From positions 83,118-147,117 of the forward strand of contig DASTXL010000002.1 in assembly GCA_035758565.1 (NCBI GenBank): a stretch of 64,000 bases of DNA, written 5' to 3'. This document shows, piece after piece, positions 63,498-63,886 of this stretch. The translations under genes and the position numbers were made by a program. The first letter of the stretch is position 1; every line of letters begins with the position of its first letter. The notes under the pieces are model-generated. The model made no database searches and was not told the DNA's origin. It worked only from the letters and a program-made list of their open reading frames with translations. The stretch is from Candidatus Saccharimonadales bacterium (lineage in GTDB: Bacteria > Patescibacteriota > Saccharimonadia > Saccharimonadales > UBA10212).

Positions 63498-63515
63498 TGG
63501 CGGAGAGGGAGGGAT
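63498..63515 (-). repeat. Exact 18-nt copy of the 3' end of tRNA-Ser(GCU)
   Basis: TGGCGGAGAGGGAGGGAT at 63498-63515 is identical to 63687-63704, 189 bp apart in direct orientation. A degenerate T-loop-like GTTCGACCC follows. Confidence 0.85.
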
Positions 63516-63556
63516 GTTCGACCCAACCCGTCAAAAAGCTCTGCTTTTTGCGGTCG

Positions 63557-63621
63557 GGCCCGCCTCGCGGTTTGCCTGAGCGGGCAAACATCGCTCCGGC
63601 CGTTCGAATCCCACGCGGGCC
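63557..63621 (+). pseudogene. tRNA-like remnant (acceptor-like stem plus T-loop-like sequence)
   Basis: GGCCCGC (63557-63563) pairs perfectly with GCGGGCC (63615-63621). There is an internal stem GTTTGCC/GGCAAAC (63570-63589) and GTTCGAATC at 63602-63610. At 65 nt, with no proper T stem or 7-nt anticodon loop, it is not a functional tRNA fold. Confidence 0.3.
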
Positions 63622-63686
63622 AAGCAGTTGTCTCGCTTCGCCTCGTACCAAATTAATAAACCCAGCTAGCGCTGGATTCATTAATT

Positions 63687-63779
63687 TGGCGGAGAGGGAG
63701 GGATTCGAACCCTCGCTGGAACTTTCGCCCCACTATCGATTTAGCAAACCGACCCCTTCAGCCTCTTGGGTACCTCTCC
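63687..63779 (-). tRNA. tRNA-Ser (anticodon GCU), CCA encoded
   Basis: Manual fold: acceptor GGAGAGG/CCTCTCC, anticodon stem TCGGT/ATCGA with loop TTGCTAA, long variable arm, T arm GAGGG-TTCGAAT-CCCTC. Confidence 0.9.
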
Positions 63780-63796
63780 ATTGTATTTAACTAGCC

Positions 63797-63886
63797 TGGC
63801 GGAGAGGGTGGGATTCGAACCCACGGTACCGTTTCCGGCACGACGGTTTTCAAGACCGTTACCTTCAACCGCTCGGTCACCTCTCC
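63797..63886 (-). tRNA. tRNA-Ser (anticodon UGA), CCA encoded
   Basis: Manual fold: acceptor GGAGAGG/CCTCTCC, anticodon stem ACGGT/ACCGT with loop CTTGAAA, long variable arm, T arm GTGGG-TTCGAAT-CCCAC. Confidence 0.9.

Follow-up and report, generated by a model that had tools for sequence, protein, structure and literature searches.

Mobile DNA that integrates at tRNA genes leaves blocks of identity which run from the T-loop or the anticodon loop to the 3′ end of the tRNA (PMC4383910, PMC9897764, bioRxiv 10.1101/2020.12.28.424599). The integrases known to act at such sites are specific for a single tRNA, and tycheposons use a separate integrase for each tRNA (bioRxiv 10.1101/2020.12.28.424599). 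Here, we describe two units located behind serine tRNA genes in a 64,000-nt stretch of DNA (the window) from contig DASTXL010000002.1 (assembly GCA_035758565.1) of a Candidatus Saccharimonadales bacterium. Both are small, non-coding, non-autonomous insertion elements at tRNA 3′ ends. The unit behind tRNA-Ser(GGA) (168 bp; the GGA unit) is a typical member of a family, designated type A, that is widespread in Saccharibacteria and related candidate-phyla bacteria and is apparently undescribed. We found no earlier description of these elements in the full-text literature or in Rfam 15, which is absence of evidence and not proof. The unit behind tRNA-Ser(GCU) (189 bp; the GCU unit) has the same layout, a parallel already drawn in a preliminary description of this locus made from the sequence alone.

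The host was placed in the Saccharimonadales, within the Saccharibacteria (a candidate-phyla lineage), on the basis of its valS relatives; the identity of its valyl-tRNA synthetase (ValRS) to those of the best representative genomes is 58-67%. Three intact tRNA-Ser genes, all on the minus strand, were recognized by both ARAGORN and Rfam: (i) the CCA-encoded tRNA-Ser(UGA) (63797-63886; 60 bits with the Rfam tRNA model), (ii) tRNA-Ser(GCU) (63687-63779), separated from the former by 17 nt, and (iii) tRNA-Ser(GGA) (45543-45633). These are the only matches in the window at the gathering score of Rfam 15. The last 18 nt of tRNA-Ser(GCU) (TGGCGGAGAGGGAGGGAT; 63687-63704) recur exactly at 63498-63515, with a spacing of 189 nt, and those of tRNA-Ser(GGA) (TGGCGGAAGGGGCGGGAT; 45543-45560) at 45375-45392, with a spacing of 168 nt. 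Both 18-mers correspond to tRNA positions 59-76, and the gene spacing and GCU duplication are exactly as first described. When up to three mismatches were allowed, the search of the 64 kb recovered only the tRNA ends and the distal copies (chance expectation 0.04), and none of 100 shuffles reached 5. An origin of the duplicates in the assembly of repeated tRNA ends, which the preliminary description had considered, can be dismissed for the GCU locus, since an independent Logan assembly (L001) is 100% identical over the distal copy, the spacer and the proximal copy.

Comparison with related genomes revealed that both direct-repeat pairs bound precise insertions, as expected of the attachment-like repeats that had been proposed. 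The native downstream flank of the GGA unit (45282-45374, minus strand; a long hairpin followed by a T-rich run), taken together with the distal copy, is 80% identical over 111 nt to positions 7837-7946 of locus L006. There, the counterpart of these 93 nt (7855-7946) adjoins the CCA of an intact tRNA-Ser, with no insert, and the acceptor stem of this tRNA is the same as that at the tRNA-Ser(GGA) locus. On the GCU side, the distal copy is followed by the flank TTTGATAT (63490-63497) and the start of a gene for a P-loop NTPase; in loci L202, L203 and L204 both directly adjoin the CCA of an intact tRNA-Ser(CGA), and in L205 TTTGATA is found in place of TTTGATAT after the tRNA-Ser CCA. Both empty sites belong to a different serine isoacceptor than that of the window. 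The distal 18-mers therefore sit at the native tRNA-Ser 3′ end of the relatives, and the sequence up to the copy within the working tRNA is extra. In locus L211, tRNA-Ser(GCU) is followed by a clean type-A element with an exact 18-mer and tRNA-Ser(GGA) is empty; both serine sites are thus occupied in some genomes and empty in others. Approximately 5 of about 50 tRNAs are occupied in the valS-anchored Saccharibacteria loci.

Two further observations concern these sites. The 80% identity of the flank 45282-45374 to L006, although ValRS is only 62% identical, is unusually high for intergenic DNA, and this hairpin flank may be more than a terminator. The tRNA-Ser isoacceptor slots also differ among related genomes (63687-63886 in the window compared with L202 1233-1322, L205 2894-2981 and L006 7766-7854). 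The slot before the P-loop gene holds the CGA isoacceptor in relatives and UGA plus GCU in the window, in which no tRNA-Ser(CGA) was found over the 64 kb; the flank behind tRNA-Ser(GGA) in the window is that behind tRNA-Ser(UGA) in L006, and acceptor and T-arm sequences are swapped among the isoacceptors. This shuffling of tRNA-Ser genes among loci is treated as an observation separate from the insertions.

The GGA unit contains all of the type-A parts in the correct order. Read outwards from the tRNA on the minus strand, these are (i) an element-borne terminator-like hairpin recognized by folding (45501-45542), (ii) a left and a right arm (45468-45500), the former (GGATTTGAGCC) a degenerate inverted T-arm and the latter (CAGGG-TTCG) a copy of the 5′ strand of the T-stem plus the first four T-loop bases, (iii) the cargo (45393-45467), an irregular hairpin with the core CGCGCA-GGAAUUUAUUUC-GAGCAC and a 3′ tail, and (iv) the distal exact copy of positions 59-76. 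Within the partial tRNA copy, the cargo separates T-loop positions 58 and 59. A covariance model (R1) built from 60 other members of the family matched the unit at 45410-45472 with 56.1 bits (E=8e-11), and no credible Rfam match was obtained in the spacer at E≤10.

A scan of the tRNA genes at the valS loci revealed copies of the last 12-21 nt located approximately 140-240 nt downstream of other tRNAs, namely tRNA-Arg(GCG) (L004), tRNA-Ser(CGA) (L006, L013 and L027), tRNA-Ser(UGA) (L013) and tRNA-Glu of a Moranbacteria genome. Four spacers, including that of the GGA unit, have a core in common (GTTCG, about 15 nt, CKCGCAGGA-NN-T-NNN-T-NN-GAGMA), which was matched in at least 120 metagenome stretches; six chance matches inside unrelated coding regions were removed before 121 pattern matches were counted. 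We defined type A by GTTCG and a covarying hairpin (CKCGCA-stem-GAGMA) placed 65-105 nt after a tRNA and followed by a copy of positions 59-76. Among the matches listed, to which the counts in this and the next paragraph refer, 90 of the 121 have an ARAGORN tRNA on the same strand within 260 nt upstream, with the tRNA end typically 65-105 nt before the core match, and several of the remainder follow a tRNA that carries a group I intron and is missed by ARAGORN. The tRNAs concerned serve at least 17 amino acids. The suggestion of a family of miniature derivatives was therefore largely right, and that of an element specific for serine tRNAs was not. When the 18-mer was sought within 160 nt after the core, the best match had no mismatches in 22 of the 90 tRNA-linked cases, at most two in 42 and at most four in 54; the elements with two mismatches or fewer are 123-204 nt long. 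A direct copy was found downstream of 52 of 238 tRNAs examined, an upstream copy in three cases and an exact inverted copy in none. The identity block spans 14-21 nt in relatives (21 nt in type B of L013 and 14-19 nt in others), and the modal type-A repeat is 18 nt from position 59.

On the tRNA strand, a type-A element and its surroundings consist of (i) a tRNA ending in CCA, (ii) a terminator-like hairpin (about 35 nt) that follows an A-tract and precedes a T-tract, (iii) a left arm, usually starting with TGG(N), which is a 70-95% inverted copy of the last 19-33 nt of the tRNA, (iv) a short, variable hairpin whose loop is often GCGAAGC or GCGTAGC, (v) a right arm that copies approximately tRNA positions 45-58 and ends in TTCG, (vi) the cargo of about 70-85 nt with its conserved hairpin and (vii) tRNA positions 59-76, often followed by the native terminator. 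Three features went beyond the preliminary description: the inverted tRNA-end copy, the covarying hairpin of the sense strand and the placement of the cargo exactly at 58/59. Insertion is always after NCCA, and the left arm resembles the reverse-complemented 3′ end of its cognate tRNA significantly more closely than those of other tRNAs (median empirical p 0.03). The element ends vary with the local tRNA; there are no family-constant terminal inverted repeats and no short target duplication of fixed length. The 18-mer diverges from the tRNA by 12%, compared with 26% for the adjoining right arm, and in many elements the right arm has decayed badly next to an 18-mer that is still exact, with the pseudo T-stem often unpaired. 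This better preservation of the 18-mer fits a block of recombination or duplication and not a part of a selected fold. Internally deleted tRNA copies were also considered and rejected: comparison of the region before the right arm with the 5′ part of the cognate tRNA in 37 type-A elements gave a median p of 0.59, so that any likeness to D-arms and anticodon arms does not exceed chance.

The cargo was examined in a gap-free alignment of 60 non-redundant sequences. In the proposed stem-loop 82% of the cells are paired, compared with 63% in shuffles, and 217 cells are compensatory (81 +/- 11 in shuffles, none of 500 of which reached 217); the covariation score is 0.52, and falls to 0.07-0.13 when the partners are slid. 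In well-defined pairs G.U occurs 14 times and A.C once. This tolerance of G.U places the structure on the tRNA-sense strand, either as RNA or as single-stranded DNA; a comparison of the minimum free energies of the two strands showed no bias and was uninformative for the choice of strand. No variation is found in the internal loop (GCA/GA) or at a C.A mismatch, most of these bases being fixed by the search pattern. No Rfam family matches the cargo, and inspection of the elements revealed no obvious promoter-like sequence. We infer from this, and from the terminator that stands between tRNA and cargo, that a role at the DNA level is at least as likely as a role as RNA.

The cargo is also portable. 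Cargos 90-96% identical are found behind tRNAs for different amino acids (Arg/Ser, Met/Arg and Met/Asp), and the identity ends at GGTTCG on one side and at ATCC on the other, the terminator, the arms and the rest of the 18-mer being unrelated. Conversely, elements at initiator tRNA-Met genes in different contigs have homologous terminators and arms and carry different cargo subfamilies. A portable cargo thus sits at T-loop position 58/59, and the partial copy around it is specific for the tRNA.

The GCU unit proved to be a mosaic. It opens directly after the CCA with a terminator-like hairpin (63651-63686, minus strand; 19-nt arms, 89% complementary), flanked by an A-tract and a T-tract, which could terminate transcription in both directions; most type-A elements open with the same kind of hairpin. 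The spacer that follows (63516-63650, minus strand) begins with TGG, the complement of CCA, and contains (i) an inverted tRNA-Ser T-arm fragment (63602-63614; GTTCGAATCCCAC), which matches the T-arm of the UGA gene exactly over 13 nt, (ii) an inverted 14-nt fragment of a tRNA-Asp 3′ end (63551-63564), (iii) an 8-bp hairpin (63532-63550) and (iv) a degenerate direct T-arm (63516-63529), which directly precedes the exact 18-mer on the same strand. The order is thus tRNA, terminator, TGG, inverted T-arm, hairpins, degenerate direct T-arm and exact 18-mer. Both hairpins, reported previously, were confirmed, the longer one as an inverted repeat as well as by folding. Shuffling of the spacer gave an inverted tRNA match of at least 13 nt in only 3 of 200 trials. 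The only tRNA fragments in the spacer are inverted 3′-end pieces, with no similarity to the 5′ two-thirds of a tRNA. A 65-nt tRNA-like remnant had been proposed here; neither ARAGORN nor Rfam, even at E≤10, called a tRNA or any credible RNA family in this spacer. The homology formerly suspected between the two spacers was likewise not borne out: MAFFT gave no convincing alignment outside the 18-mers and the terminator, R1 found nothing in the GCU spacer at E≤10, and the strings that the spacers share are T-loop-like GTTCG/CGAAC plus GGAGCG. The two spacers share their layout and not their content, and are not homologous; the preliminary description had named a lack of significant similarity as grounds for refutation, and this part of its claim accordingly fails. 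A part of the GCU unit has the string GGATTCGAACGG in common with a second type of element found in L013 and L096. We assign the GCU unit to the same broad class, as an older member that would have undergone recombination and whose content would have decayed into a mosaic.

Variants of the basic arrangement were also observed. Tandem and nested units occur in L096, L101, L116, L144, L152, L157 and L190. In L200, two copies, neither of them near a called tRNA, lie about 4 kb apart (39-101 and 4113-4175, both on the minus strand). Their identity extends from the right arm over a tRNA-Gln-type 18-mer and about 8 nt of flank, and their terminators and left arms differ; such a gradient resembles the outcome of gene conversion, or of copying confined to the right part. 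In L192 (minus strand, about 7190-7360 as oriented), a type-A cargo of 66 nt splits a full-length tRNA-Ser(CGA) at T-loop position 58/59, and the tRNA has no intact copy directly upstream. This state could come from recombination between a tRNA and a right arm. It is the only interrupted tRNA among more than 100 pattern matches listed, and an interrupted working tRNA was accordingly rejected as the normal state.

Group I introns (RF00028) were detected in two tRNAs that ARAGORN missed and that are followed by type-A elements, i.e. tRNA-Asn of L152 (1020-1271, plus strand, 72 bits) and tRNA-Met of L100 (1025-1228, minus strand, 68 bits). A conserved sequence, GGTTCCAATTCGA(A/T)T...GTACTC-NACCA, precedes the elements in L141 (8520-8564), L156 and L163; it ends in ACCA, is followed by a terminator and an element with arms of the initiator-tRNA type, and was not called by ARAGORN or by Rfam at the gathering score. 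Exact copies of tRNA 5′ ends, which mirror the 3′-end copies, were found about 113 nt upstream of tRNA-Ser(UGA) in L017 (22 nt; tRNA at 17658-17745) and about 348 nt upstream of tRNA-Glu in L010 (35 nt; tRNA at 6321-6393). The Saccharibacteria-like contig L152 also contains a DUF3800-IX RNA (6166-6229, plus strand), which scores 48 bits, above the Rfam gathering score.

The P-loop NTPase gene beyond the distal GCU repeat (62956-63480, minus strand) encodes a protein of 174 aa with no Pfam match and 567 homologues; this protein is annotated in an NCBI metagenome-assembled genome of Candidatus Saccharimonadales. Its convergent partner (62012-62959, plus strand) encodes a protein of about 293-315 aa, also with no Pfam match, and the 3′ ends of the two genes overlap by 4 nt. 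The pair is kept in the corresponding loci of all eleven relatives, with varying upstream neighbours. The presence of this gene, to which the preliminary description had drawn attention, is incidental; it is a common Saccharimonadales gene.

For the origin of the elements we favour site-specific recombination mobilized in trans within the block from the T-loop to the 3′ end, an explanation to which we give about an even chance of being correct. A recombinase supplied in trans would exchange strands within the T-loop-to-CCA block; the element would supply a replacement 3′ end with a terminator, so that the tRNA would stay intact, and the native 3′ end would be displaced to become the distal 18-mer. 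The logic would be that of a tRNA-targeting integrative element cut down to little more than a structured attachment site. This explanation accommodates most of the facts. Partial tRNA-Ser copies that end in the GCU-type 18-mer also speak for it: they are frequent in IMG/VR contigs, where they usually run 1-11 nt beyond the 18-mer and lie at many contig ends, and three viral contigs have two copies 9.6-10.5 kb apart.

Several observations weigh against this explanation. No integrase-bearing or kilobase-sized occupied site was found among the 212 genome, metagenome and relative loci, and no recombinase was identified. Near-identical cargos serve many tRNAs, whereas the known integrases are tRNA-specific, and recombination of double-stranded DNA would have to involve a very small circle, of 150-190 bp. 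Covariation in which pairing is kept indicates a folded single strand and not a site bound by protein as double-stranded DNA. Beside the 18-mer copies in viral contigs, inverted tRNA-end copies are no more frequent than expected by chance. An element with Met-type arms behind a non-cognate tRNA-Asn (L179) and elements away from any called tRNA (L116 and L200) also fit it poorly. The GCU unit has no homologue among the loci compared, apart from its own second assembly, and no match to the type-A cargo, so that its membership of the family is judged from layout alone. Together, the lack of an integrase, the 17 tRNA kinds, the covariation and the inverted arm are compatible with, if not in favour of, movement through folded single-stranded DNA as in HUH/Y1 or attC systems.

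The search for genes that might accompany the elements gave the following results. None of the elements at the 212 loci contains an open reading frame (ORF); the window inserts measure 150 and 171 nt, and the only ORFs listed there, on both strands, would encode 56-97 aa. No recombinase gene was recognized in the bounded segments. Among the nearest downstream ORFs of 101 elements, no cluster was larger than two and no protein gene adjoins consistently; this survey revealed no HUH, Y1 or reverse transcriptase gene beside any element. The type-A core had no match in 2.9 million viral contigs, and a phage origin of the core was rejected on this ground; no cognate integrase-bearing element sharing site and ends was found in the viral contigs or in the metagenome and genome loci, as distinct from whole genomes. 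Long-range tRNA-end copies enclose ordinary genes with no integrase recognizable by inspection of the ORFs. Long occupied sites were considered as candidates and rejected, since the distant tRNA-end copies turned out to be other tRNAs or solo elements.

A second explanation, which is possible and which we hold only tentatively, is that the cargo is itself a new mobile unit that would home to the universally conserved T-loop of tRNA-like DNA, at position 58/59, as a folded single strand or as RNA, the palindromic partial tRNA copy being a harmless landing pad or a target-matched guide. The inverted-copy score was too weak to detect any cargo-free palindromic skeletons.

It is unlikely, yet deserves serious consideration, that the units are single-stranded-DNA hairpin elements, in which the folded tRNA-sense strand would be moved in trans by a structure-specific enzyme, either a HUH/Y1 enzyme of the IS200/IS605 or REP kind or a tyrosine recombinase as at attC or the CTX phage site. 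For co-oriented tRNA genes this strand would be the lagging-strand template; the tRNAs of the window lie on the G-rich strand, and the GC skew is monotonic over its whole length. Pairing of the inverted arm, either with the target or with the 18-mer of the same element, would set cleavage right after the CCA, which agrees with the TGG start of the arm exactly after the terminator and with its resemblance to the reverse complement of the cognate 3′ end (p as given above). The conservation of pairing instead of sequence, on the sense strand only, also speaks for this mechanism, as do the strong terminator between tRNA and cargo, the lack of an obvious internal promoter and the very frequent GCGAAGC or GCGTAGC loops, which we take to be GNA triloops, i.e. 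unusually stable DNA mini-hairpins. However, no HUH or Y1 gene lies beside any element, the folding energies of the strands show no bias, a complementarity of only 70-90% between inverted arm and 18-mer would make a poor guide, and a duplication is present here, whereas IS200/IS605 elements duplicate no target.

Selection for a functional RNA module linked to the tRNA and reached by terminator read-through appears improbable. In such a module the inverted arm would pair with the 3′ third of the tRNA or with the downstream copy and would switch processing, termination or expression of the next gene. The strong covariation with invariant loop bases, the conservation of the 18-mer above its neighbours and a direct-inverted-direct layout that permits alternative pairings would all suit it. 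They have to be set against the sporadic presence of elements at orthologous tRNAs, the number of decayed copies (36 of the 90 tRNA-linked matches listed have five or more mismatches in the 18-mer), the decay of the arms with a pseudo T-stem that is often unpaired, a strong terminator before the unit, the lack of a consistent downstream gene, and the occurrence of tandem or nested copies and of some not beside any tRNA.

We consider it highly unlikely that the units are scars of large integrase-bearing islands or prophages whose interior was later deleted, close to what had first been supposed. Direct repeats of tRNA 3′ ends are the classic boundaries of islands (PMC4383910, PMC9897764). In three viral contigs, moreover, the GCU-type 18-mer bounds inserts of about 10 kb. 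Independent deletions, however, would not give a length range as narrow as 123-204 nt, nor the same ordered parts in more than 100 loci, nor a covarying hairpin, and the loci examined contain no intermediate or full-length form, including the 212 in which an integrase-bearing or kilobase version of the island was sought.

There is similarly very little to recommend a retro-element, i.e. a DNA copy made by a reverse transcriptase that starts at, or switches to, the tRNA 3′ end. Retroviral primer-binding sites copy positions 59-76, reverse transcription stopping at m1A58, and the modal type-A repeat is likewise 18 nt from position 59; the direct-inverted-direct zigzag also resembles snap-back products, as far as its layout can suggest. 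Repeats of other lengths occur, however (21 nt in type B and 14-19 nt elsewhere), and none of the elements has a reverse transcriptase in its vicinity. The copy reads in the sense of the tRNA, whereas a primer-binding site has the complementary sense, and a CCA encoded in the gene, as here, does not prove an RNA intermediate. Tandem or rearranged tRNA duplicates that have decayed, with the distal 18-mer as the stump of a tRNA-Ser pseudogene kept by gene conversion, are barely credible: the intact tRNA-Ser(CGA) in the relatives' slot before the P-loop gene, the shuffling of tRNA-Ser genes and the degenerate T-arm before the distal GCU copy would suit them, but the boundary is sharp (18/18 identical, then about 35% divergence over the next 14 nt), no spacer resembles the 5′ two-thirds of its cognate tRNA (median empirical p 0.59, as noted above) and the cargo shared behind 17 tRNA kinds would be left unexplained.

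The mobile DNA of Saccharibacteria and their relatives, which have tiny genomes and single-copy tRNA genes, is little known, and a gene-less element family found behind most kinds of tRNA would show a minimal, safe way to colonize essential genes. It would explain partial tRNA copies that confuse annotation, may explain the tRNA-Ser shuffling, and offers a precise marker of insertion and loss for population studies at the strain level. The elements point to an enzyme that would recognize the T-loop-to-CCA end whatever the tRNA gene, and guidance by the element arms, if it occurs, could allow this enzyme to be retargeted. Homing of the cargo, if true, would amount to a two-tier, possibly nucleic-acid-guided targeting of tRNA genes in ultra-small bacteria.

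Among described systems, prophages, integrative and conjugative elements (ICEs), islands and tycheposons that target tRNA genes resemble the units in that insertion restores an intact tRNA and leaves the displaced 3′ fragment as a direct repeat (PMC4383910, PMC9897764, bioRxiv 10.1101/2020.12.28.424599). The T-loop-to-CCA block, the 3′ end and terminator supplied by the element and the tandem accretion at the same tRNA are also common to both. In contrast to them, the units described here are 150-190 bp long and gene-less, with no integrase found; one type of cargo serves the tRNAs of 17 amino acids, whereas known integrases are tRNA-specific; and they carry an inverted copy of the tRNA end together with a covarying single-strand hairpin.

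The cis-mobilizable elements (CIMEs) related to ICESt1 and ICESt3 of Streptococcus are flanked by attachment sites and lack an integrase; their length is in the kilobase range, and the integrative element from which they derive is known. Like the present units, they are non-autonomous segments bounded at a tRNA-type site by copies of the attachment site, and a recombinase acting in trans is presumed to move them. They differ in their length and in having a known parent, none being known for the units here. Miniature inverted-repeat elements, REP/REPIN sequences and IS200/IS605 derivatives are likewise small, non-coding, hairpin-rich, multicopy, moved in trans and structured on one strand. The arms of the present units, however, copy the 3′ end of the neighbouring tRNA and are not family-constant terminal repeats, and they are accompanied by an 18-nt direct repeat, an insertion point fixed relative to the tRNA and no visible transposase.

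The attC sites of integrons and the CTX phage site are recombination sites that act as folded single strands. With these the units have in common imperfect hairpins, conservation of structure over sequence, strand specificity and an integrated form flanked by copies of the chromosomal site. They differ in the lack of an integron integrase and cassettes, in a target that is a tRNA end and not attI or dif, and in the position of the crossover. In Thermoproteales archaea, transposing tRNA introns occupy non-canonical positions, including the T-loop. Here the host is bacterial, the insert lies nearly always in a partial downstream copy and not in the working gene, and no bulge-helix-bulge motif was seen on inspection; the likeness lies in a short, related insert at a fixed T-loop position in many tRNAs, and L192 is indeed interrupted at 58/59. 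As a kind, insertion elements that target tRNA genes are known; the arrangement of cargo and landing pad may reflect an undescribed mechanism, a prospect that we regard as real and well short of probable.

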